Notes: generated from the letters alone by a model not told the origin. Shown: positions 15,024 through 39,826, counted from the first letter of the stretch. The stretch: DNA of 64,000 bases from Candidatus Nomurabacteria bacterium (GCA_026395995.1 JAPLXQ010000010.1:218179-282178), one strand, 5' to 3'. A program made the numbers and translations.

Positions 15024-15557
15024 ATGATTTATTTTGTACGACACGGAGAAAGTGAAGCTAATGTTAGAAATGTCTTTGCTGGACAAAAAGATGATTCGCT
15101 TCTTACTGAAAAAGGTAAGGAACAGGCACTTGCCACTGCTAAAGAAATAAAGAAGGAAAATCTTACTTTCGATCGAATTATTTCTTCGCCACTTCAGAGA
15201 TCTTTAGAAACAGCTAGAATAATTGCAAAAGAAATTGGTTTTGATTTTTCAAACATTATTATAGATAATCGTATTAATGAATATGATATGGGCAGTATTA
15301 CTGGGAAACCTTATGGAGTTATTTCTTCTGAAATTTTAGTGGGTGCTGAAAATGCAGAAAATCCAGAATTATTTAAAGAACGTGTTTATTTTTGTATTAA
15401 AGAATTAAATCAACTACCAGAAAATATATTAGTTGTTAGTCATGCTGGAGTTGGGAGAATATTGGAAACTATAAAAGAAGGTAAAGAAGCAAAATATTTT
15501 TATGATTTACCACCTTTTCCTAATGCTTCTATAATTAAGATAGATTGGATTAAATAA
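15024..15557 (+). CDS. histidine phosphatase family protein (phosphoglycerate mutase-like)
   Basis: MIYFVRHGESEANV (RHGE motif). Confidence 0.75.
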   Translation: MIYFVRHGESEANVRNVFAGQKDDSLLTEKGKEQALATAKEIKKENLTFDRIISSPLQRSLETARIIAKEIGFDFSNIIIDNRINEYDMGSITGKPYGVISSEILVGAENAENPELFKERVYFCIKELNQLPENILVVSHAGVGRILETIKEGKEAKYFYDLPPFPNASIIKIDWIK

Positions 15558-15578
15558 GGTTTTATATTTATTTATAGT

Positions 15579-15599
15579 GTGCAAAGTCGAACTTTGCAC
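15579..15599. repeat. REP-like 21-bp palindrome, copy 1 (inverted relative to copies 2 and 3)
   Basis: gtgcaaagtcgaactttgcac. Confidence 0.7.
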
Positions 15600-15627
15600 A
15601 AATATAATTCTTTTGTATAATTTAATT

Positions 15628-16302
15628 ATGAAAAGTAAAAATATTGCTCCCGAAGAGTATTATCATATTTACAACAGGGGAATGCAAAAACAACCTATTT
15701 TTGAAAATGACTCAGACAGGCTACGTTTTTTATTTTTGATTTTAACCTTTCAAGGTAAAGAACTTATAAAAAATATTAGTCGTGAAGTAAAACAAAATGT
15801 GCAAAGTTCGACTTTGCACATTTCTAAAGAAACAACTAAAAATGTTGCGCAAAATCGACAAGTTGAATTAGTTAGTTTTTGTTTAATGCCAAACCATTTT
15901 CATTTGATTGTAAAAGAAAAAGAAGAAGGTGGAATAGCAAAATATATGCAAAGAATTTTAACTAGCTATACAAAGTATTTTAATAAAAAATATAATAAAA
16001 GCGGACATCTTTTTCAGGGGTCTTATAAGAGTATTTTAATTGAAGATGATCGGCAGTTAATGCATTTGTCTGCCTATATTCATAAAAATCCTTCCGAAAT
16101 TAAAGGTTGGAAAAATAAAGAAGATAAATATTATTGGTCAAGTTATAATGATTATATTTATGAAAATCGTTGGGATGAATTACTTTCACAAAATATTATC
16201 CTAGATAGATATAATATAGATAAAGAAAAGGGAACTTATAAGAAATTCGTCGAAACCAGTTTAGCTAAAGAAACTGTGCAAAGTTCGACTTTGCACAGTT
16301 AA
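15628..16302 (+). CDS. REP-associated tyrosine transposase (RAYT, IS200/IS605 TnpA-like HUH enzyme)
   Basis: YHIYNRG N-terminal motif, HUH motif LMPNHFHLIV, catalytic Tyr region GHLFQGSYKS...YIHKNP; flanked by REP palindromes. Start moved to ATG 15628; the tracked N-terminus translates REP copy 1. Confidence 0.7.
   Translation: MKSKNIAPEEYYHIYNRGMQKQPIFENDSDRLRFLFLILTFQGKELIKNISREVKQNVQSSTLHISKETTKNVAQNRQVELVSFCLMPNHFHLIVKEKEEGGIAKYMQRILTSYTKYFNKKYNKSGHLFQGSYKSILIEDDRQLMHLSAYIHKNPSEIKGWKNKEDKYYWSSYNDYIYENRWDELLSQNIILDRYNIDKEKGTYKKFVETSLAKETVQSSTLHS
15799..15819. repeat. REP-like palindrome, copy 2, inside the RAYT ORF
   Basis: gtgcaaagttcgactttgcac, encodes ..VQSSTLHIS.. in frame. Confidence 0.7.
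16276..16296. repeat. REP-like palindrome, copy 3, at the RAYT 3-prime end
   Basis: gtgcaaagttcgactttgcac, encodes the C-terminal ..VQSSTLHS*. Confidence 0.7.
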
Positions 16303-16309
16303 AAAAAAT

Positions 16310-17236
16310 ATGATTCCAAAACATAATATTTCTAGTTTAGAAGGTAAAGAATTAGAAAAGGCCATCAAAAATGACTTTGGTTTTGAGATTACAAATACAG
16401 AAAAAATAACAAAAGGATATTCTAATCAAGTTTATAAAGGAAATCTTGAAAATAAAAATGTTTTCATAAGGATGAATAAAGACCCTAGAGTGTTCGAAGC
16501 AGAAGTTCTTGGATATAAAAGATTTGAAGAACAAGGTATACCTGTACCAAAAATAATTGCCTATAAAGAAAATCCTTCATCAATTGGACTTCCTGCAATG
16601 ATCATGTCTTCAGCTGAAGGCAATATTATTCCCGAACTAAAGCTGTCTCCAGAAGAAAAGGATATTGTTTTTGAAAATGTAGGAAAATTGTTAAAAAAAA
16701 TTAATGAAACTAAGTTAAAAGGCTACGGTCCTTTAAAGGTAGAGAATGGAGAATTGGTTGGTAAATTTTCAACATATAAAGAGCAAGATGAATCACGCGG
16801 AGAATATAATAAAAAAGTTTTTGATTTTGCAGTAGAAAAGAATTATATAATTGGTGAAGATATTGAAAAAGTTAAAAAAGTATATGAAGAAATTAGTTTA
16901 TTAAATATAGGAAATCAGACATCACTATTGCATCATGATATGCACAGAGGACATTTTTTTGTTAAAGGGACTGAAATATCAGGAATTATTGACCTAGGAG
17001 CTTTGATGGCTGGTGATCCACGATATGATATAGCAATAAGTTTGGCTCATCAACATCCTAGAGAGCAAGAAGCTTTTAAAAAAGGTTATGGTGAATTAGC
17101 TAATGACCCAATGGTGAATAAATATTTAATTACTGTTTTAGTAAGAAAAATATTTTTTAGAAATAAAGACCATGTAAAAGGAAATGTCGAAGCGTTACTT
17201 CCAACCCTAAAGGATGCTTTGGAAAAATTATCTTAA
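16310..17236 (+). CDS. aminoglycoside/choline-kinase-like phosphotransferase (APH family)
   Basis: Catalytic HHDMHRGHFFV (Brenner motif) and IDLGALMAGDPRYDIA (DxG-like) motifs. Confidence 0.65.
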   Translation: MIPKHNISSLEGKELEKAIKNDFGFEITNTEKITKGYSNQVYKGNLENKNVFIRMNKDPRVFEAEVLGYKRFEEQGIPVPKIIAYKENPSSIGLPAMIMSSAEGNIIPELKLSPEEKDIVFENVGKLLKKINETKLKGYGPLKVENGELVGKFSTYKEQDESRGEYNKKVFDFAVEKNYIIGEDIEKVKKVYEEISLLNIGNQTSLLHHDMHRGHFFVKGTEISGIIDLGALMAGDPRYDIAISLAHQHPREQEAFKKGYGELANDPMVNKYLITVLVRKIFFRNKDHVKGNVEALLPTLKDALEKLS

Positions 17237-17748: not shown

Positions 17749-18273
17749 ATGTTTGCTGATCCAGTAAAAATTTTACAAAGTTTTGGTTTAGGGGATAGTA
17801 TGATCGTAGCTGACCTCGGAGCAGGTTCAGGTTTTTATTCTATTGCGGCTGCAAAAATGGTTCCGAATGGTAAGGTTTATGTTGTAGAAGTTCAAAAAGA
17901 TTTTTTGACAACAGTCAAAACAAAAGCAGAAACAGAGCACCTTAGAAATTTGGAATATATTTGGGGAGATATTGAAAAAATAGGAGGCACAAAAATTGCT
18001 GATAGAGTAGCTGACGTTGTCATTATTTCCAATGTTTTATTTTTAGCTGAAAATAAAAAAAAGATTATTGAAGAAGCTAAAAGAATTTTAAAATATGAAG
18101 GACGTGTTTTACTCATTGAATGGTCAGATGCTTCTTCGGCTTTAGGGCCACGTGCTGGTTTTGTATTTAATCCAATAAAAGCAAAAGAAATGTTTTTAGC
18201 TGAAGGTTTTACTTTTGAGCGAGACATATCAGCAGGAGAACATCATTATGGTATAATGTTTAAAAAACAATGA
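17749..18273 (+). CDS. class I SAM-dependent methyltransferase
   Basis: Motif I VADLGAGSGFYS; motif II/post-I acidic residues. Confidence 0.65.
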   Translation: MFADPVKILQSFGLGDSMIVADLGAGSGFYSIAAAKMVPNGKVYVVEVQKDFLTTVKTKAETEHLRNLEYIWGDIEKIGGTKIADRVADVVIISNVLFLAENKKKIIEEAKRILKYEGRVLLIEWSDASSALGPRAGFVFNPIKAKEMFLAEGFTFERDISAGEHHYGIMFKKQ

Positions 18274-19562
18274 AAGGAAATAATTTTCAACTAATACTTT
18301 TAATAATATTTATTGTCGGAGCTGTTTTTGGTATTTTAGTTTTTGCTGGCCTTGTTCCATTTGGTCAACCAGCAAAGACAGGACCCGTCGGTACCGTCGT
18401 CCTTTGGGGTACTGTGAAGCAGTCTTCTTTAGGAAGAGCTTTAGCTGATTTTGGCCACATCAGTACCAATGTTAATTTAAAATATGTAGAAAAAAATCCC
18501 TTAACTTTTGATCATGATTTATTAGAAGCTTTAGCTTCTGGTGTTGGTCCAGACCTTTTTATACTACCTGACGATTTGATTTTGCATTATAAAGATAAGA
18601 TAGCACTTATACCGTATGCTTCTTATTCTGAAGCAACTTTTAAAAACACTTTTGCTGGAGCTGGAGAAATTTATCTTAGTTCAAAAGGTATTTTAGCTTT
18701 ACCATTATCTGTAGATCCTTTGATTATGTATTACAATCGTACTGTTTTAGATGCTAATAATATAACCAATCCACCAGCCTATTGGGATGATTTGCAAAAT
18801 ATTGTTCCCTTAGTTACAAAGAAAGATATATCTGGAAAAATAATAAATAGTGGAGTAGCATTAGGTCAATTTACAAATATTGAACATGCTAAAGATATTA
18901 TCTCGACACTTTTTATGCAGGCTGGTAGTACTATCGTTCAAGAAAAAGGTGGATTTTTAAATTCAACTTTAAGTGCTTTGAGTAACTCAGCTAATCCAGG
19001 AACTATTTTAAGTTTTTATACTCAATTTGCCGATCCTCTTAGTCCTTTTTATTCTTGGAACAGATCTCTTCCTAATTCCAAAGATTCATTTAGTGCCAAT
19101 AATTTAACTTTTTATTTTGGTTTTGCTAGTGAACTTCCATATTTAACTAATAAGAATCCTAATTTAAATTTTTATATTACTTCAATTCCACAAATTAAAA
19201 ACTCTAGCCTAAAAGTTACATTTGGTAAAACTCAAGGTATTGCTGTCTCAACTTTTTCAAAAAATAAAGCTTCAGCTTTTTCTGTTGCTGGGCTTTTGGC
19301 TTCTGGTGATTTTGCAAAACAATTTTCTGACTCTTTGTTAGTTGCACCAGCTAGGCGTGATTTATTGGCAGTAAAACCAACAGATGCATATTTTCCTATT
19401 TTTTATAGTTCTGCTTTGTATGCTAAAAGTTGGCTTGATCCTTCTGCTGTTGATACAGATTCTATTTTTAGTGGAATGGTAGATAATGTTTTATCAAATA
19501 CTTTACCAGCCAAAGAAGCTGTCTTAGATGCTTCTGCCAAATTAGATTTATTATTACACTAA
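18270..19562 (+). CDS. membrane-anchored extracellular solute-binding-like protein
   Basis: N-terminal TM anchor; GTVVLWG...PDLFILPDD...YYNRTVL resembles family-1 ABC substrate-binding proteins. Confidence 0.4.
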   Translation: MKGNNFQLILLIIFIVGAVFGILVFAGLVPFGQPAKTGPVGTVVLWGTVKQSSLGRALADFGHISTNVNLKYVEKNPLTFDHDLLEALASGVGPDLFILPDDLILHYKDKIALIPYASYSEATFKNTFAGAGEIYLSSKGILALPLSVDPLIMYYNRTVLDANNITNPPAYWDDLQNIVPLVTKKDISGKIINSGVALGQFTNIEHAKDIISTLFMQAGSTIVQEKGGFLNSTLSALSNSANPGTILSFYTQFADPLSPFYSWNRSLPNSKDSFSANNLTFYFGFASELPYLTNKNPNLNFYITSIPQIKNSSLKVTFGKTQGIAVSTFSKNKASAFSVAGLLASGDFAKQFSDSLLVAPARRDLLAVKPTDAYFPIFYSSALYAKSWLDPSAVDTDSIFSGMVDNVLSNTLPAKEAVLDASAKLDLLLH

Positions 19563-19568
19563 TCAATC

Positions 19569-21158
19569 ATGAAAATATTTATGAAAATTTTTTGCACACG
19601 TCTTATATTAGTAGTATTTTTAATTTTAATCTCTTTTGGATTGTCTAAAAAAGTTTTTGCTAGTGGAGTTCTTGCTACTATACCTACAGCTACAACTGTA
19701 TCTGTAGGTGGTAGTGGATTTACTAGTGGTGTTTCATACCAAATCACTTTGTACGATCATTTAACTTCATCAAACATTAATCATACATTTGCTACAGCAA
19801 CCGGTAACAATGGATCTTTCGGAGTTACTTTCTCTAATCTAACCCCTAGTCATAGCTATGATATTATGGCCACTTTACAATCAAACGGTACACCAGCTAG
19901 TGGTATTACCAATTTTTCAACCATAGCCGCTCCGACAGTTGTCACACTTACTGCGACTCCTTCGACTCTTATAACAGGACAATCAACAGTAACGACATTA
20001 GCTTGGAGTGCGACAAATGTTACAGGTAGTTGTATTGCTGCTAGTAATCCTAATATAATTGCTGTTTGGGATAACGCGCATAAAGCACTTTCTGGAACAC
20101 AGCAAGTTACTGTCGTAGCTTCTAATAATTTTACTCTTACTTGTACTAATTCATCAGGAAATGTCGTAGGACAGGCACAAGCACATATAACAGTCTCTGC
20201 TGGTGGAGGCTCAGTCTCTGCTCCTACTGCAAATCCTTTACCTGGTACTTTTACTGGAACTCAAAATGTAACACTTTCTAGTGCTACTAGTGGAGCGACT
20301 TTTAGATATGTTTTAGATTCATCTACACCTAATTGTTCTATGGGTCTTACGACAAATCCAGTAAATATTCAATCAACAACTACAATTCGAGCTATTGCTT
20401 GTGATTCCCATGGAGTAGCTTCTCCTGTTTCTTCTTTGACTTATACTATAAATACTTCAGGAGGAGGTAATCCACCTCCACCACCTTCTGGTGGTCCGAC
20501 AACTTCCGGACTTTTAGTGGCGAATGATCCTACTTCAGCTATGGTGACTTTGACTATAAGTGGAATTCCTAATAATTATTCTACTTTTGATTTAAGTGTT
20601 TATAATGAACCAGGCACAAATTCTTATTATCAAACACATTCTATTTCTCAAGATGGATTTGGTGGGGCAGAAGATTATTTTAATGGTTTAGCTCCAAGTG
20701 GTTCATATAAGGCCTATGTTTCAGATAGTAGTGGAACAAACTTAGTAACACCGGTCACTTTTTCAACCTTAGCTACAGACCCAATCGTTGTCGGTGGTAA
20801 TGGCAGTAATACTAGTGGGGGAAATGTAACTTCTGCTACTAGTCTTTCTAGCCCTGCTGGTGGCCTTGTGCCTGAGTGTACTAGTACAAAAGGTTGCCAA
20901 TGGAAAGAATTATTAAGTCTTGTGAATAAGGTAGTAAAATTTATTCTTTTTGCCTTAGGTATACCTATTGCTGCTATTATGTTTATGTATGCTGGTTTTA
21001 AATTAATAACTTCTGGTGGTAATCCTAGCGAATTGACTAAGGCTAAAGGTGTTTTCGGTTCTGTTTTTATGGGTATTGTTTTAGCTGCAGCTGCTTGGCT
21101 TATCATTAATGTCGTTTTGACTACTTTAGGCTATGATGGGTCTTGGATTGGATTCTAA
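19569..21158 (+). CDS. large Thr/Ser-rich surface protein with C-terminal VirB2/TrbC-like pilin hairpin
   Basis: Signal peptide, Ig-like T/S-rich repeats, PPPPPSGGPTT linker. C-terminus FILFALGIPIAAIMFMYAGFKLITSGGNPSELTKAKG...IVLAAAAWLIINV is a two-helix hairpin with a charged loop. Confidence 0.55.
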   Translation: MKIFMKIFCTRLILVVFLILISFGLSKKVFASGVLATIPTATTVSVGGSGFTSGVSYQITLYDHLTSSNINHTFATATGNNGSFGVTFSNLTPSHSYDIMATLQSNGTPASGITNFSTIAAPTVVTLTATPSTLITGQSTVTTLAWSATNVTGSCIAASNPNIIAVWDNAHKALSGTQQVTVVASNNFTLTCTNSSGNVVGQAQAHITVSAGGGSVSAPTANPLPGTFTGTQNVTLSSATSGATFRYVLDSSTPNCSMGLTTNPVNIQSTTTIRAIACDSHGVASPVSSLTYTINTSGGGNPPPPPSGGPTTSGLLVANDPTSAMVTLTISGIPNNYSTFDLSVYNEPGTNSYYQTHSISQDGFGGAEDYFNGLAPSGSYKAYVSDSSGTNLVTPVTFSTLATDPIVVGGNGSNTSGGNVTSATSLSSPAGGLVPECTSTKGCQWKELLSLVNKVVKFILFALGIPIAAIMFMYAGFKLITSGGNPSELTKAKGVFGSVFMGIVLAAAAWLIINVVLTTLGYDGSWIGF

Positions 21159-21177
21159 TTTAAGTTATAATATATCT

Positions 21178-21549
21178 ATGAAAAATATCATTCAAAAAAA
21201 TATCTCAAAAATTTCTTTAGCTACTTATATAGTATTATTTCCAGTTATTTCTTTTGCTACTGCGACGATTACTCCTTGTGAAGTTTCTGGTGCAGTCTGT
21301 AATCCTATAAGTGCAAATAATATTAATGATTTTATAAAAGCTATTCTTGAAGGTGCGATAAAGATCGGCATACCTATCATTGCTTTAGCTATTATTTATT
21401 CTGGTTTTCTTTTTGTAAAAGCTCAAGGTAAACCAGAAGATTTAAAAACCGCGAAAAATGCAATTATGTATACCTTGCTCGGTGCTGCTTTATTACTCGG
21501 AGCTTGGGCTTTAGCTCAGCTTATATCAGAGACTGTTTTAGCTTTATAA
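21178..21549 (+). CDS. pilin-like small membrane protein (VirB2/TrbC-like two-helix family), paralog 2
   Basis: IGIPIIALAIIYSGFLFVKAQGKPEDLKTAKNAIMYTLLGAALLLGAWAL parallels the C-terminus of the preceding large protein. Confidence 0.5.
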   Translation: MKNIIQKNISKISLATYIVLFPVISFATATITPCEVSGAVCNPISANNINDFIKAILEGAIKIGIPIIALAIIYSGFLFVKAQGKPEDLKTAKNAIMYTLLGAALLLGAWALAQLISETVLAL

Positions 21550-21556
21550 TAAAATT

Positions 21557-21886
21557 ATGAAAAATAATATTAAAAATCTTTTTGCTGCTTGTGTTTTGAC
21601 TCCTCCGAATACTTTTAAAAGTTTTGTAGAATATATTATTTGTAATATTAATAAATCTGTCATACCTCTGATTATTTCTCTAGCGGTTACTATGTTTGTC
21701 TGGGGTATTATTCAATATTTGGTTGGTGCCAACGAAGAAGTAAAAAGAGAAAAAGGTAAATACTTTATGTTATGGGGGATTATCGGCTTAATGGTAATGA
21801 TTTCTGTATGGGGCCTCGTACGGGTTTTTGGTAGCACTATTGGTGTTCAAAATGTCATTCCCCAGGTTCAAAATACTTCTATATAA
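21557..21886 (+). CDS. pilin-like small membrane protein, paralog 3
   Basis: IPLIISLAVTMFVWGIIQYLVGANEEVKREKGKYFMLWGIIGLMVMISVWGLV. Confidence 0.5.
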   Translation: MKNNIKNLFAACVLTPPNTFKSFVEYIICNINKSVIPLIISLAVTMFVWGIIQYLVGANEEVKREKGKYFMLWGIIGLMVMISVWGLVRVFGSTIGVQNVIPQVQNTSI

Positions 21887-21889
21887 AAT

Positions 21890-22231
21890 ATGAAAAATAA
21901 TGTAAAAATAAATGTTTATAAAAATATGTTTGCTATTTGCACAGTAGGTTCAAGTCCTAAAATTTCAAGTGTCCTAGATTATATTACTTGTATTATTGCT
22001 AAAGGTATTTGGCCTATTTTACTCTCATCCTCTATTGTAGTCTTCATATGGGGTGTCTTGCAGTATGCTTTAAACCCACAAGATGTAAAAAAAAAGGCAG
22101 AAGGTAGGAGTTTTATGCTTTGGGGTTTATTTGCTTTGACAGTGATTATCTCTATTTGGGGCTTTGTAAATATTGTCATTGGAACCTTTCAATTAAACAA
22201 TGCTAATCCCAGTATTCAGACTGTTGTCTAG
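21890..22231 (+). CDS. pilin-like small membrane protein, paralog 4
   Basis: WPILLSSSIVVFIWGVLQYAL...KKKAEGRSFMLWGLFALTVIISIWGFV. Confidence 0.5.
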   Translation: MKNNVKINVYKNMFAICTVGSSPKISSVLDYITCIIAKGIWPILLSSSIVVFIWGVLQYALNPQDVKKKAEGRSFMLWGLFALTVIISIWGFVNIVIGTFQLNNANPSIQTVV

Positions 22232-22355
22232 TAGCATTTGTTTTTGTCTTTATGGTATAATTAACCTAACCTAATCACTTAGGACATTATTATTAAGAGG
22301 TCGTTTCGTTTATTAATTATTAATAGTCTCGATAAAATCGAGAAAAAATATAAAT

Positions 22356-22736
22356 ATGAAGAAAAAAATTGTTGGTTTAGTTAGTCTTTCAGCATTGGCA
22401 CCTTTATTTGCCTTTGCCCAAGTAACAAACTGTGGTACTGGTGGAAATATTGAGTTTATTCTTTGTAAAGCAGGTCAACTTATTAACTCAATAATACCTG
22501 TTTTAATATCATTGGGTGTTGTTTACTTTATCTGGGGAGTTATTTCTTATGCTATTGGAAAGGATGAAGAAGCTAAAAAAGAAGGACGTGGAAGAATCAT
22601 TAATGGTCTTATCGCTCTTCTTGTTATCGTTTCAATCTGGGGATTAGTTGGTATTTTGCAAAATGCTACAGGAGTAGATCAAGCTACTTCATTCCAAGAT
22701 GTGCCTTGTATTGCTGGCCCAGGATCTACTTGTTAA
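22356..22736 (+). CDS. pilin-like small membrane protein, paralog 5
   Basis: Signal peptide; IPVLISLGVVYFIWGVISYAIGKDEEAKKEGRGRIINGLIALLVIVSIWGLV; C-terminal Cys pair. Confidence 0.5.
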   Translation: MKKKIVGLVSLSALAPLFAFAQVTNCGTGGNIEFILCKAGQLINSIIPVLISLGVVYFIWGVISYAIGKDEEAKKEGRGRIINGLIALLVIVSIWGLVGILQNATGVDQATSFQDVPCIAGPGSTC

Positions 22737-22751
22737 GTTTGAAATAAAATT

Positions 22752-23105
22752 ATGTCTTTAATTAATGTAGCTTATGCTGGTGAAAGTTTAGATCAATTCA
22801 TAAAGAATGTGGATAAACTTATCATTAATCCACTTATTATATTGATTTTTGCTTTAGCTATCGCGATTTTTCTTTGGGGAGTATTTCAATTTATTGCTAA
22901 TACTGAAAAAGAAGATGAACGTAGTAAGGGTAAAAAGCATATGTTATTTGGGATTATTGGTATCACTATTATGATGGCAGTGTGGACTCTTTTAAGTATT
23001 CTTTTGAATACTTTAAATATCAGTCCAAATGAAATAAATCCACAACAGGGGACAGTGCATTTAAATGATTACACTCCTTCTACACCGACTGGATTATTGC
23101 AATAA
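22752..23105 (+). CDS. pilin-like small membrane protein, paralog 6
   Basis: PLIILIFALAIAIFLWGVFQFIANTEKEDERSKGKKHMLFGIIGITIMMAVWTLL. Confidence 0.5.
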   Translation: MSLINVAYAGESLDQFIKNVDKLIINPLIILIFALAIAIFLWGVFQFIANTEKEDERSKGKKHMLFGIIGITIMMAVWTLLSILLNTLNISPNEINPQQGTVHLNDYTPSTPTGLLQ

Positions 23106-23126: not shown

Positions 23127-23165
23127 AAATAAAAAGTCCCCTCGCGATGTGCGAGGGGACTTTGT
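23127..23165. terminator. bidirectional rho-independent terminator
   Basis: aaaagtcccctcgcgatgtgcgaggggactttgttttt between convergent genes. Confidence 0.65.
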
Positions 23166-23193: not shown

Positions 23194-23613
23194 TTAACAG
23201 TGCTTAAGTAGCCTTATTAGGGTTCCTGGAGGCCCTGTTACTCTCCAGGTACCAGTGTGAATATTTCCACCTATGATGTTGATATCTCCTTTTCCTATGT
23301 AGGGAATTGGAGTACGACTTCCAGGAGGATAAAAATTCACCGGCACACCTTCGGTATCAACATCGAACACGTAATTTATTTTTATAAATACTTCACCATT
23401 TGGACCAATAAATTGGTCCGGCATCCTTACAAGACAAGGTCCTGTTGTTGTCGTTGTTTGATTGCCACTGGAAACATTCGTGTCTCCAGTGGTTGGCGGA
23501 TTAGTATTGTTTGTATTTGTAGCTTTACTGGCATCAAAATCGTTTCCGAATATGAGCCAAAATATTACAAACGCAGCAACAATTCCAATTCCTGCTTTTT
23601 GATTCTGTTTCAT
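23194..23613 (-). CDS. secreted/membrane-anchored hypothetical protein
   Basis: N-terminal TM/signal, Thr/Asn-rich linker, Cys near both ends. Confidence 0.45.
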   Translation of the reverse strand: MKQNQKAGIGIVAAFVIFWLIFGNDFDASKATNTNNTNPPTTGDTNVSSGNQTTTTTGPCLVRMPDQFIGPNGEVFIKINYVFDVDTEGVPVNFYPPGSRTPIPYIGKGDINIIGGNIHTGTWRVTGPPGTLIRLLKHC

Positions 23614-23636
23614 TCTCTAGTTTTTTTAAGTTTCAC

Positions 23637-24656
23637 TTATTCTTTTTTCTTGCCTTTTTTTGTTGTGGGGGCAAAACCTCCACCCATACCGACACCTCCA
23701 ACCATGTAAACATCTGATCCTTTTGGAACATCAATTTTCATTTCTGTGTAGCCAGGTTTACCAAATTTCATAAAAGGAATAATTGCATTTTTTGGTACAC
23801 CAGCTTTCAGGTATTCTTTAAAAGCTAATCCGTCTTGTTCAGCTGTTACTACTGGAAGCATAATTCTTCTGGTTTCAGCATCGGGAGAGCTATTTTTTAA
23901 GATCATTTCCAGGACAACACCGTGCTGTCTTTGAAAGTCTATAAAAATTTGTTTATTCTTGTTTGCAATTCCTTCAGCTTGGTCAGCAAAAACTTGTTCT
24001 ACAACATCTGCTTCTTTGTTTAAAACATTGATTGTGTTTTTAGAGTAGTAAGTAGAAAAAATTGAACCTACTTTAAACTCAGCAGCTCTTCCAATCGCCC
24101 CATCTTCATAAGAAGAAAAGCGTTTGAATTTTTCAGAGGCTTCATGTGGTGTTCCGGAAGTGTCAGGATACATTATTAAGATGAACCTTGCGTCCATGTT
24201 TAATGTCTGAACAATAGTACCCCATTTTTCAGTAATATCCACAGAGATAGCCCTATGAAGCTCCCAAAATTTTTCTTCTTTGATTCCTTTAAGATTTTTC
24301 CTTTTTTCAATACTTTCAAAAAATGGAATTGTCCAATGTAAACCAGGAAAAAAAACTCTACGTTCTTTACCAATTGAATCAAAACCGAGAGCCCCTCGAA
24401 AATCATCTACACTTACAGAATTTATGCCTGCATAATATGACAATCCAAAAAGTACCCCAGCGATTACAAATGATAAATAGTGAAATATTTTGAATAGTTC
24501 AGGTGTTACATATTTATCACCGAGCTTCCAAATTATTATCCACAATAAAACAAAATAAACTATATTCCAGAGGTACACCTTAGGCGGTACCACTGTTGAG
24601 GGAATAGTTAAATCCCTTTCTGTTGTTTTGGCTGAATTGCCATTTACTTGTACCAT
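23637..24656 (-). CDS. SPFH/band-7-like membrane protein
   Basis: N-terminal TM helices, then VSVDDFRGALGFDSIGKERRVFFPGLHWTIPFFE, resembling the SPFH core; Gly-rich KK tail. Confidence 0.45.
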   Translation of the reverse strand: MVQVNGNSAKTTERDLTIPSTVVPPKVYLWNIVYFVLLWIIIWKLGDKYVTPELFKIFHYLSFVIAGVLFGLSYYAGINSVSVDDFRGALGFDSIGKERRVFFPGLHWTIPFFESIEKRKNLKGIKEEKFWELHRAISVDITEKWGTIVQTLNMDARFILIMYPDTSGTPHEASEKFKRFSSYEDGAIGRAAEFKVGSIFSTYYSKNTINVLNKEADVVEQVFADQAEGIANKNKQIFIDFQRQHGVVLEMILKNSSPDAETRRIMLPVVTAEQDGLAFKEYLKAGVPKNAIIPFMKFGKPGYTEMKIDVPKGSDVYMVGGVGMGGGFAPTTKKGKKKE

Positions 24657-24710
24657 TTCTTGTATGAATTAAATTAATTAATTATTTGTTTAAAAACTTT
24701 TCTTGTGTTA

Positions 24711-24739
24711 AGTATAGCATATACAAACTAAAAAGTCAA
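24711..24739 (-). promoter_or_regulatory. consensus promoter module copy 2 (TTGACT-N17-TGCTATACT)
   Basis: Reverse complement reads gcTTGACTttttagtttgtatatgcTATACTt. Overlaps hairpin gtcaagcttttggcttgac (24735-24753), the probable terminator of the upstream minus-strand gene. Confidence 0.6.
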
Positions 24740-24788
24740 GCTTTTGGCTTGACTTTTTAGGCTTATTTATAAGGGTATTTTTACCTAA

Positions 24789-24813
24789 AATCCCCCTGAT
24801 AAGGGGGACAAAG
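24789..24813. repeat. small GC-rich palindrome (tccccc tgataa ggggga)
   Basis: Member or relative of the CT/GA-arm GC-rich element family; intergenic. Confidence 0.4.
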
Positions 24814-24826
24814 GGGGTTGTATTAG

Positions 24827-25579
24827 TTAGGCTTTCTTTAAAGCTAAATTTTTATCTTTCTTAGCTATAAAGAGCATTCTCCAGAAGAAGACGAAGAATA
24901 AGATTAATATACCGAGTAAGATCCATTGAAGGAAAGTAGAAGGCATAAATCCTGATCCTAGGGCATTCGCTGTCAGATTACTGTTTGTATTTGAAACTGC
25001 AGTTTTGCTAGTAGTAGCTTTTTTTGCAGTCGTAGCAGTATTTGCTGGTGGATAATCTCCGACAGGGTTTCCAGATGAGGCTACTGTTCCTACGGCTGAA
25101 GTATTATTGGTTAGATTTAAATAAGCAGCGTTTGAGATATATCCATTGTTTGGGTTGTAAATAGAAACAATGTAAGTACCTACTGTGCCCATATCTGCTG
25201 GATAAATATTCATACGTAAGTGAGTAGAGTTTATATAAGTAGTAGGTCTGTCATAACTATTAAATCTAGCTACAGAATCTTGTGAGAAATTTACTCCTGT
25301 GATATCGATAGTCTTTACAGCAGTACTTCCATAAACCATTGAATCAGGACTTATAGAATAAATCGCTGGTACAGCATAAGAACTAGAATTATTATTGCTA
25401 TTACCGTTGTTATTATTATTTGAGTTTGAATTTCCTGAATTAGAACTACCTGGTCCAGACCAATAATAAACATAAGCACTAGCCTTTGCAGGTATAAATA
25501 CCACCGCCACGAAAACTAAAGTTATTATTAATGTTGAAAGTAAACTATATTTATTTGTGTTGTTTATTTTATTCATCAT
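24827..25579 (-). CDS. secreted Asn/Ser-rich protein with C-terminal TM anchor
   Basis: Signal peptide, NSNSNNNNNGNSNNNSSS low-complexity, C-terminal hydrophobic helix plus basic tail. Confidence 0.45.
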   Translation of the reverse strand: MMNKINNTNKYSLLSTLIITLVFVAVVFIPAKASAYVYYWSGPGSSNSGNSNSNNNNNGNSNNNSSSYAVPAIYSISPDSMVYGSTAVKTIDITGVNFSQDSVARFNSYDRPTTYINSTHLRMNIYPADMGTVGTYIVSIYNPNNGYISNAAYLNLTNNTSAVGTVASSGNPVGDYPPANTATTAKKATTSKTAVSNTNSNLTANALGSGFMPSTFLQWILLGILILFFVFFWRMLFIAKKDKNLALKKA

Positions 25580-39022: not shown

Positions 39023-39095
39023 GTCGGCGTAGCTCAGTTGGTAGAGCATAGCACTCATAAAGCTAAGGTCACAGGTTCAATCCCTGTCGCCGACA
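39023..39095 (+). tRNA. tRNA-Met or Ile2 (anticodon CAT; elongator-type)
   Basis: Acceptor gtcggcg/cgccgac, loop ctCATaa; lacks initiator features. Confidence 0.7.
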
Positions 39096-39154
39096 CAAAT
39101 TATAAGAAGTATATAGGGTAGTATATATTACTGTCACCATGATATAATATATAG

Positions 39155-39826
39155 GTGCCAGTCTATAAAAAGGTAAATAAAGATTTTTTTAAAAAATGGT
39201 CACCTGAAATGGCTTATGTTTTAGGTTTTTTATTTGCTGATGGAAATATTGTTCATACAAAAAGAAATACTTGGTTTTGGTCTTTACAAATTACCGATAA
39301 GGATATTTTAATAAAGATAAAAAAAGAAATTAATTCATCACATAAGGTTTCGTTTAAAAAGAAGGTTTTAAATAATAAACAGTTGTATCGTTTACAGATT
39401 GGAAGCAAAGAAATGTGTGAAGATTTAATTAAATTAGGTTTAACTCCACAAAAAAGTAAAACAATGATATTTCCACAAGTTCCAGAAAAATATTTTTCTG
39501 ATTTTTTGCGTGGTTATTTTGATGGAGATGGTGGAGTTTGGTTTGGTTTAAAAAATAAAAAAAATATTAATCAATCTTATGTAATTAATGTTTGCTTTAC
39601 TTCAGGTAGTAAAGATTTTTTAATCTTCCTGAGAGGTATTTTGAATAAAAAATCTATTTTAGGTGGTTCTTTGGTAGAAAAAGAAAGAGGGTTTGATTTA
39701 AAATATAGTATCAAAAATTCTTTGATTTTATATAAAATAATGTATAATAGTAATGTTCTCAAAAATAACCTGTTTTTAGAAAGAAAAAGAGCTATTTTTG
39801 AGAAGTTTATATGTTTGCGATCGTAG
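39155..39826 (+). CDS. LAGLIDADG homing endonuclease (double-motif, single-chain type)
   Basis: Two motifs: LGFLFADGNI and LRGYFDGDGGVWF. The stop codon overlaps the first 10 nt of the intron-containing tRNA. Confidence 0.7.
   Translation: MPVYKKVNKDFFKKWSPEMAYVLGFLFADGNIVHTKRNTWFWSLQITDKDILIKIKKEINSSHKVSFKKKVLNNKQLYRLQIGSKEMCEDLIKLGLTPQKSKTMIFPQVPEKYFSDFLRGYFDGDGGVWFGLKNKKNINQSYVINVCFTSGSKDFLIFLRGILNKKSILGGSLVEKERGFDLKYSIKNSLILYKIMYNSNVLKNNLFLERKRAIFEKFICLRS

Follow-up and report, generated by a model that had tools for sequence, protein, structure and literature searches.

The 64,000-nucleotide (nt) stretch JAPLXQ010000010.1:218179-282178 of a Candidatus Nomurabacteria (CPR) bacterium (metagenome-assembled genome GCA_026395995.1), hereafter the window, carries six consecutive plus-strand genes, P1 to P6, whose products share a terminal two-helix module (Table 1). 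At each of the six C-termini, hydropathy and alignments place two hydrophobic segments of approximately 19-22 residues on either side of a K/R/E-rich loop of 10-14 residues; all six open reading frames (ORFs) and their hairpins were recovered where the original prediction, made by a model from the DNA only, had placed them. The paralogs form one tightly packed plus-strand unit ending at a strong terminator hairpin, which also closes the convergent minus-strand unit. The intergenic gaps within the array amount to 19, 7, 3, 124 and 15 nt, the 124-nt gap ahead of P5 being the sole sizeable one, and only 6 nt separate the first gene from the stop codon of a gene for a solute-binding protein (SBP). 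For P2, the mechanical ORF opens at 21133, and independent gene calls give the start used here. Signal peptides with an AxA-like site are predicted in P1, P2 and P5; a lipoprotein signal was considered for P3 and P4 on account of their FAAC and FAIC motifs, and was ruled out because no hydrophobic h-region precedes the cysteine. A promoter scan returned 30 sites versus 30.1 expected and was uninformative. The window as a whole has a G+C content of about 33% and is densely occupied by housekeeping genes (gyrA, ClpB, IF2, RbfA, CTP synthase, LepA, HisRS, FtsEX), together with a MacAB-like exporter, signal peptidase I and 12 tRNAs.

Table 1. Features of the pilin array and its surroundings, with positions counted from the first nucleotide of the window (aa, amino acids; TM, transmembrane).
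Feature	Position	Strand	Description
P1	19569-21158	+	529 aa; 525 aa if started at the second Met, 19581 (start used by gene callers and NCBI)
P1, Pro run of linker	20472-20486	+	aa 302-306
P1, Cys motif	from 20856	+	AGGLVPEC-x5-C
P1, two-helix pilin module	~20901-21125	+
P2	21178-21549	+	123 aa; signal peptide, C-x6-C loop, hairpin; TrbC-like short pilin, subtype of the P1 module
P3	21557-21886	+	109 aa; second subtype; no canonical signal peptide; Cys pair ahead of helix 1
P4	21890-22231	+	113 aa; second subtype; NCBI locus tag NT068_03060
P5	22356-22736	+	126 aa; second subtype; NT068_03065; signal peptide, N-terminal Cys pair, C-terminal VPC...C pair
P6	22752-23105	+	117 aa; last pilin; no Cys; long conserved C-terminal tail
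Bidirectional intrinsic-terminator-like hairpin	23133-23163		14-bp stem, 8 G-C pairs, T runs on both strands
SBP	18270-19562	+	430 aa; PF13416 SBP_bac_8, 35 bits; one TM helix, aa 8-26; sugar-type
Class-I methyltransferase	17749-18273		174 aa
Segment without counterpart in L009	15018-17233		~2.2 kb
Histidine phosphatase	15024-15557		within the L009-absent segment
IS200-like Y1 transposase	15577-16302		PF01797, 53 bits
APH-family kinase	16310-17236		within the L009-absent segment
Convergent surface/membrane proteins	23194-25579	-	three genes
tRNA-Met	39023-39096
LAGLIDADG-type ORF	39155-39826		PF14528, 33 bits

Searched with whole proteins against the hidden Markov model (HMM) of the pilin family of type IV secretion systems (T4SS), PF18895 (T4SS_pilin; gathering cut-off 26.6 bits), five of the six gene products pass the cut-off (P1 and P2, 31.9 bits each; P3, 33.4; P5, 34.4; P6, 35.4), P4 being the sole one below it with 19.9 bits; the P1 module taken alone reaches 36.6 bits. 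P4 aligns in register with 34 family members, every one of which matches PF18895, and its ortholog in the related locus L002 has a precomputed match to the same family. The architecture of PF18895 proteins, i.e., a pair of hydrophobic helices with a short charged loop between them, about 70 residues in total, is found in hydropathy profiles, alignments and AlphaFold 2 (AF2) hairpins; the P5 model consists of the hairpin H32-67/H71-105 with a predicted local distance difference test score (pLDDT) of 70, and a C-terminal hairpin is likewise obtained for P1, within a model of low overall confidence. Both the VirB2/TrbC-like identity and the two-helix hairpin that had been anticipated are borne out in this way, the small proteins falling into the T4SS pilin family and not into an unrelated one; the case named beforehand as refuting the interpretation, an unrelated family in a genome without secretion or pilus machinery, has thus not come about as regards the family. 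Chance hydrophobic ORFs are ruled out by the family scores and by the existence of orthologs. At a broader scale, a profile of the six modules retrieves 37,128 representative clusters at E<=1e-3 among 1.84 billion proteins. Five of the six window proteins also score 19.6-30.8 bits with the NCBIfam model NF045849 (P2 29.4, P6 30.8), all below its 40-bit cut-off.

The anticipated division of the six genes into two subtypes, P1 and P2 versus P3 to P6, is recovered by invariant positions and by matches to the TrbC family (PF04956, cut-off 27.9 bits). P1, P2 and their orthologs have in common the invariant positions P, I, A, Y, G, G, A, G and W, and the modules of P1 and P2 align to TrbC profile positions 39-93 in the correct register. 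Sequences of the P1/P2 type match PF18895 in 11 of 11 cases, and TrbC at E<=0.01 in 10 of 11 (best E, 1.5e-6); all 35 relatives of the P3-P6 type match PF18895 and none of the 35 matches TrbC, nor did the HMM search return a TrbC match for P3-P6 of the window. The PF18895 and TrbC families are bridged by proteins such as P0136, which was retrieved with the window profile and lies above threshold for both. The six modules are 16-42% identical to one another, and the paralogs are anciently diverged VirB2-like members of the T4SS_pilin family. As six consecutive pilin genes, they constitute a VirB2 array as defined for Patescibacteria, namely at least two pilin genes in tandem or with one-gene spacing (PMC12102498).

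The first gene of the array differs from the other five in carrying a pilin module behind what is predicted to be a large secreted multi-domain region. In order, P1 comprises a signal peptide (aa 1-32, MKIF...KVFA/SG), four Thr/Ser-rich beta-sandwich domains (approximately aa 41-117, 119-214, 215-294 and 312-402, the third of the CHB_HEX_C_1/Fn3_assoc type), the poly-Pro linker GGGNPPPPPSGG, a Gly/Ser/Thr linker, the Cys motif and the pilin module. In the third domain, residues 223-292 score 49.8 bits with PF13290 (CHB_HEX_C_1) and 37.8 bits with PF13287 (Fn3_assoc), for cut-offs of 22 and 23, respectively. The full-length AF2 model shows four beta domains followed by the hairpin H441-477/H482-515, and was used for domain boundaries only. 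The protein had been described as an adhesin-like domain of 450 aa with the pilin module fused at the C-terminal end: the Thr/Ser-rich beta domains, the poly-Pro linker and the C-terminal module are all present, and the size has to be corrected to an ectodomain of about 400 aa. NCBI names P1 only as a chitobiase/beta-hexosaminidase C-terminal domain-containing protein, and its orthologs are P0003 (63% identity) and P0002. The full-text literature searched yielded no report of an adhesin domain fused to a VirB2-like pilin.

The distribution of this ectodomain was followed in a survey in which one genome per GTDB species was scanned with the P1-type module, yielding 80 loci, nearly all of them from Nomurabacteria or Paceibacterota; the scan pattern PI[AS]AI[MA]F[AM]Y limits the survey to the clade keeping this motif, and ORF lengths were measured from the most upstream start codon. 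A word-indexed homolog search with the same module returned only proteins of 104-198 aa and missed its own 525-aa parent, and was not used for the frequency of fusions. Across the survey, the first-pilin ORF measures 142 aa at the median and is below 170 aa in 52 of the 80 loci, at least 250 aa in 23 and at least 400 aa in 12, with a maximum of 1095 aa. The ectodomain is confined to the first pilin, being absent in most species and reaching about 1000 residues in others. In the short form of locus L008 the signal peptide is directly followed by a GLVTC...C motif and the hairpin, which argues that the ectodomain is an insertion between signal peptide and module. The ten long forms scanned all have PF18895 at the extreme C-terminus, nine of them above the cut-off, and their N-terminal regions vary widely in content (fn3, Ig, purple-acid-phosphatase-N-like, DUF5018, InlB B-repeat, Big_7). 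On a tree of the SBP, the long forms are grouped in one part of the clade with short forms interspersed among them, over lengths of 264-766 aa. P1-type modules also occur outside the conserved cassette. One of them is at the C-terminus of the 1095-aa protein (Big_7, fn3), about 8 kb downstream of which a PilB-like T2SSE ATPase is encoded (L084:2384-5668 and L084:13564-15306). In L019:3020-10300, a 206-aa ORF with a P1-type module begins 4 nt after a 2218-aa TIG/CARDB ORF, and may be part of a split giant pilin-anchored protein.

At shorter evolutionary distance, the ectodomain is variable as well. In comparison with the close relative L009, in which the gyrA protein is 99.6% identical, domain 1 of P1 has diverged to 54% identity with a synonymous divergence (dS) of 0.65, and domain 3 to 63% identity with a dS of 0.39 and a 60-aa indel. 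Identities of 95-100%, with dS values of 0.05-0.09, have been kept in domains 2 and 4 and in the pilin module. The elevated dS in domains 1 and 3 points to the import of divergent segments by recombination, and not to selection alone, so that the P1 ectodomain appears as a domain-wise recombination mosaic between close relatives. The genes P4 and P5 also show a raised dS with respect to L009 (1.2 and 0.6; neighbouring pilins, 0.2-0.3), suggesting recombinational replacement within the array, as in the P1 ectodomain.

The paralogs themselves are old and individually kept. Each has a 1:1 ortholog in L002 with 53-80% identity (P3 73%, P6 79.5%), within the context of flanking genes at 72-85%. With respect to L009, the ratio of nonsynonymous to synonymous divergence (dN/dS) ranges from 0.04 to 0.19 across P2-P6 (P2, P3 and P4 0.09; P6 0.04), and dN is 0 in the P1 module. 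Paralog order and flanks (gyrA, methyltransferase and SBP on the upstream side; the choice-of-anchor-Z-repeat protein, rbfA and infB on the downstream side) are fixed across dozens of related species by ORF and HMM analysis. The paralogs are individually under purifying selection, which, together with the 1:1 orthologs, argues for distinct simultaneous roles and not for a reservoir drawn upon one member at a time. Such a reservoir for antigenic or host-range variation, with interchangeable pilins deployed singly, is an idea derived from the VirB2 arrays of Bartonella and Anaplasma that has been raised for Patescibacterial arrays (PMC12102498), and the divergence of P4 and P5 with their elevated dS between close relatives would suit it. 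We nevertheless regard it as highly improbable here, given the age of the paralogs (identities as low as those quoted above), their fixed order and 1:1 orthology across the 80 species, the purifying selection, the structural distinctness of the subtypes and the occasional pairwise fusion of paralogs; moreover, the variable element is the P1 ectodomain and not the choice of paralog.

The array belongs to a larger conserved cassette, in which gyrA, a class-I methyltransferase gene and the gene of the membrane-anchored SBP are followed by the P1-type, P2-type, P3-P5-type and P6-type pilins, and, downstream of the cassette, by two or three fast-evolving minus-strand surface proteins and then rbfA, infB and clpB. 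The number of modules per locus is six in 36 loci, five in 21 and seven in 11 (five to seven in 68 of 80), and in 73 of the 80 loci the SBP gene immediately precedes that of the first pilin. The solute-binding-like, membrane-anchored product proposed ahead of the array proved to be an SBP_bac_8 protein with one N-terminal TM helix. Its weak relatives in the PDB are the sugar binders 1elj and 7nbz, its dN/dS with respect to L009 is 0.07, and no ATP-binding cassette (ABC) permease partner was found in the Pfam scan of the window ORFs. This constancy raises the question of whether the SBP and the six hairpin proteins could form an uptake or sensing system apart from any T4SS, with the hairpins as channel and the SBP as receptor. 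The adjacency in nearly all loci, the purifying selection and membrane anchoring of the SBP, its missing permease partner in the window and the lack of VirB4 among the flank ORFs checked would all agree with such a system; however, the gyrA-infB block is syntenic in the clade, so that the adjacency may have been inherited with the gene order of a compact genome instead of reflecting functional coupling, the hairpins are members of a pilin family, and no importer made of VirB2-like subunits is known. We consider this explanation quite improbable.

Fusions between modules are frequent among the relatives. Two adjacent modules are fused in one ORF in 42 of the 80 loci. Such fused ORFs at the P3/P4 position (L011, L014, L016, L020 and others) encode 190-350 aa with four TM helices (e.g., P0013, P0024). 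Here and in the closest relatives of the window, P3 and P4 are separate genes, 3 nt apart. The pairwise fusions are compatible with the co-assembly of different paralogs and with neighbouring positions in one assembly. Longer concatenations also exist: the above-mentioned P0136 (L089:950-4393) is a protein of 1147 aa that scores 144.6 bits with TrbC and consists of 11 modules, all of which have a hairpin and a pair of Cys residues, and P0135 has 1775 aa with 14-17 concatenated VirB2/TrbC-like modules. These long proteins may represent either polytopic membrane proteins or precursors of poly-pilins.

Regarding the secretion machinery that such pilins would require, VirB4 is present in 2,417 of 3,035 Patescibacteria assemblies (PMC12102498), and the six Nomurabacteria assemblies with this locus (L021, L026, L032, L036, L045 and L053) are all listed with “Presence of VirB4: Yes” (Table S1 of PMC12102498). 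Pilin genes distant from the motor are common, a pilin gene being near virB4 in only 1,135 of 1,948 assemblies (PMC12102498). GCA_000999465.1 is an example: VirB2 is found at genes 126 and 129, flagged as not near virB4, and VirB3 and TrsD at genes 634 and 635, flagged as near virB4 (Table S3 of PMC12102498), positions that place the motor about 500 genes from the pilin array. The ten largest unassigned ORFs checked in the flanks of our 80 loci included an MFS/spermine-synthase-like protein, a subtilase, RecG, an SPFH protein, a P-type ATPase and a TIG/CARDB giant protein, and one PilB-like T2SSE ATPase was met in an atypical locus. The link between the window array and a T4SS is hence drawn from family membership and from the literature, since no T4SS component was found among the scanned window ORFs and no VirB4 among the flank ORFs checked.

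Taken together, we consider it reasonably probable that the locus is a chromosomal pilin operon of a Patescibacterial T4SS, from which a heteromeric pilus or pilus-like surface structure with a modular adhesin-pilin would be built; fibre assembly is a prediction. The pilus or surface-appendage interpretation originally put forward is supported to this extent, with pilus, tip and adhesin function being deduced from the genes. The hairpins would insert in the membrane with both N- and C-termini outside and the basic loop inside, a topology that fits the positive-inside rule and the lining of the lumen by the basic loop in solved conjugative pili. The pilins would then be extracted and polymerised into a heteromeric fibre by a machine of the VirB4/VirB3/TrsD/VirB6 type, with its genes at another place in the genome. 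In solved VirB2-family fibres, both termini reportedly lie on the outer surface, as described by Costa and colleagues in 2016 and in later work, and for that reason the P1 ectodomain would be expected to be displayed outside the fibre. Without lipid, the F-pilus lumen is strongly positive (PMC5018250). The ectodomain would probably be present in low copy or at the tip: 400 aa on every subunit are sterically implausible, P1 is single-copy and always first, and P1 is accordingly proposed as a minor, possibly initiating or tip subunit comparable to VirB5, with P2-P6 as shaft or base. In its displayed position the ectodomain would act as a host-surface adhesin, probably for glycans, that previous surveys did not detect, and could help to set the host range.

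Several observations weigh against this proposal. P1 and P2 remain below the TrbC cut-off (20.4 bits for P1, 24.4 for its module alone, and 21.0 for P2), so that their scores fall short of strict PF04956 membership, homology being likely in view of the matches at E<=0.01 in 10 of 11 sequences of their type. The N-termini of P3, P4 and P6 are short and non-hydrophobic and appear to have no canonical signal peptide. A PDB profile search with 12 pilin modules returned no VirB2, TraA or TrbC chain, only transmembrane noise from G-protein-coupled receptors at E>=0.1; likewise, a Foldseek search with the P5 model (pLDDT 70) gave none at E<=0.001, a Pyrobaculum conjugative pilin ranking 21st with E=4.7, in a comparison for which helical hairpins are too simple a fold to be discriminating. 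The AF2 model of full-length P1, from a 12-row alignment, has a mean pLDDT of 57.7, i.e., low confidence overall, with 82-91 in the CHB_HEX domain. The CHB_HEX_C_1 and Fn3-type domains are generic beta-sandwiches whose ligand binding is putative, and a 400-aa ectodomain on every subunit is hard to pack, so that a low stoichiometry must be assumed. As for the machinery, a Pfam scan of window ORFs of at least ~125 aa, smaller ORFs and about a dozen of 100-150 aa (some being antisense overlaps of known genes) being left out, revealed no VirB4, VirB6, VirD4 or PilB-like protein, which agrees with the original remark that no T4SS ATPase or VirB4 is nearby in the 64 kb; nor was VirB4 found among the ten largest unassigned ORFs in the 10-kb flanks of the 80 loci, other unassigned ORFs of at least 400 aa being unscanned. 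Finally, no pilus from a Patescibacterial T4SS has ever been observed (PMC12857230).

Some of this evidence would also fit hairpin proteins that stay in the membrane, as a T4SS channel or stalk or as another envelope complex, P1 being a hairpin-anchored surface adhesin or glycan binder and no pilus being formed. Monoderm T4SSs normally lack pili, and none has been seen in Patescibacteria (PMC12102498, PMC10633639, PMC12857230); a relationship between VirB2 and the N-terminus of VirB6 is reported (PMC9905601); VirB4 linkage is missing in the scanned window ORFs and in the checked flanks of the relatives; proteins with 2-17 concatenated modules resemble polytopic membrane proteins more than fibre subunits; and P3, P4 and P6 have no recognisable cleavable signal peptide. 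On the other hand, the 52 of 80 P1-type proteins below 170 aa, which lack the ectodomain, indicate that anchoring a surface protein is not the main function of the module, the family shares homology with pilins that do form fibres, and a fixed set of five to seven conserved paralogs suits a heteromeric fibre with major and minor subunits, although a membrane complex would also be possible in this last respect. We judge a purely membrane-resident role rather unlikely, although it is the serious one among the alternatives. Returning to the pilus, a bolder version of the proposal can be formulated, in which Nomurabacteria would build a pilus of about six specialised core-genome pilins encoded away from the motor, including the first VirB2-family pilin with its own adhesin, which would take the place of VirB5/PrgB; recombination in the ectodomain would set the host range, and the SBP might tie the fibre to the capture of host sugars. 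In this extended form the idea is speculative, and we hold it to be doubtful as a whole.

The remaining neighbours of the array deserve a brief description. The class-I methyltransferase, predicted to depend on S-adenosylmethionine (SAM), overlaps the SBP start by 4 nt and lies ahead of the SBP-pilin block in nearly all related loci. Further upstream, between gyrA (96% nt identity with L009) and a DUF3750 gene, the segment without counterpart in L009 looks like a small strain-specific insertion. Beyond the terminator, the three convergent minus-strand genes encode predicted surface or membrane proteins of 139 aa, 339 aa (SPFH/Band-7-like) and 250 aa. The 250-aa protein has a choice-of-anchor-Z (CoaZ) repeat (NF058597, 72.8 bits), and synteny of its gene is kept in most related loci. 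In most of them the genes of the 139-aa and SPFH-like proteins have diverged beyond recognition, with Band_7-like genes at that position in some. With respect to L009, identity falls to 43% for the SPFH-like and 68% for the 139-aa protein (gyrA 99.6%), which indicates very fast evolution of these two. Elsewhere in the window, a free-standing LAGLIDADG-type ORF lies about 60 nt after the tRNA-Met gene.

The array itself is not new, and what is added is the modular P1 ectodomain, a concrete candidate for the missing Patescibacterial adhesin. Patescibacterial T4SSs have proven essential for epibiotic growth in the single system tested (PMC10633639). As a large, soluble and variable region, the ectodomain offers a handle on the putative fibre, through antibodies or tags for immuno-electron microscopy, and could be expressed for glycan- or host-binding screens. 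Its mosaic variation could serve as a genomic marker to be correlated with host identity in metagenomes, and the fixed order of the six paralogs, together with the pairwise fusions in relatives, constrains models of heteromeric VirB2 fibre assembly.

Among known systems, the closest are the Patescibacterial VirB2 arrays, of which 441, with 2-11 VirB2-like pilins at a mean identity of 25%, have been published from 383 assemblies (PMC12102498). Ca. Southlakia epibionticum has a series of predicted pilins in its T4SS cluster, which are essential (PMC10633639) and which a later review counts as six sequence-divergent VirB2-like pilins (PMC12857230). The published arrays (in Southlakia, the ML1 cluster SEML1_0006-0019) and the window array are defined by the same Pfam families, PF18895 and PF04956, and are tandem sets of divergent paralogs (six in Southlakia, six here; ~25% mean identity), chromosomal and from a monoderm host. 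The window array differs in lying outside the T4SS cluster, in a fixed housekeeping locus far from virB4 and with a membrane-anchored SBP ahead, and its first member has a large variable ectodomain, a feature unmentioned in PMC10633639, PMC12102498 and PMC12857230. A survey of Patescibacteria detected no PrgB-like adhesins (PMC12102498), which leaves the adhesin role vacant in these bacteria. In T-type pili, VirB5 sits at the tip, where it caps and nucleates the fibre (PMC12857230). The role proposed for P1, adhesion to target cells at the pilus or cell surface, is like that of VirB5 in Gram-negative bacteria and of PrgB-type adhesins in Gram-positive ones; in contrast to both, with which it has no homology, the P1 adhesin would be covalently part of a pilin, instead of standing alone at the tip or being anchored to the wall by an LPXTG motif.

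With the VirB2/TrbC/TraA pilins at large, the window proteins share the small two-helix hairpin with a basic inter-helix loop and, in P1, P2 and P5, a predicted signal peptide; they differ in scoring below the TrbC cut-off, in lacking a sequence match to solved pilins and an adjacent VirB3-VirB11 operon, and in being six paralogs instead of one. The proteins Mbov_0395 and MMCAP2_0565 of the Mycoplasma integrative and conjugative element (ICE), covered by NF045849, are likewise small two-helix pilin-like proteins of monoderm conjugation, although that model is an equivalog for a different lineage and all matches to it are below its cut-off. We know of no classical pilin with a large fused domain. 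On the other hand, a receptor-binding module covalently joined to a pilin module is found in FimH and PapG of the chaperone-usher systems and in the modular type IV pilins PilB and PilC of Streptococcus sanguinis; with such adhesin-pilins, a fibre built from short pilins can be decorated or capped by a minor subunit, whose binding module differs from strain to strain. What these proteins have in common with P1 is the architecture only, their folds and assembly machines being unrelated, so that the likeness is one of analogy. Thus, the array is a further case of the published Patescibacterial kind, to which it adds a modular first pilin, a cassette detached from its motor and a constant SBP neighbour.

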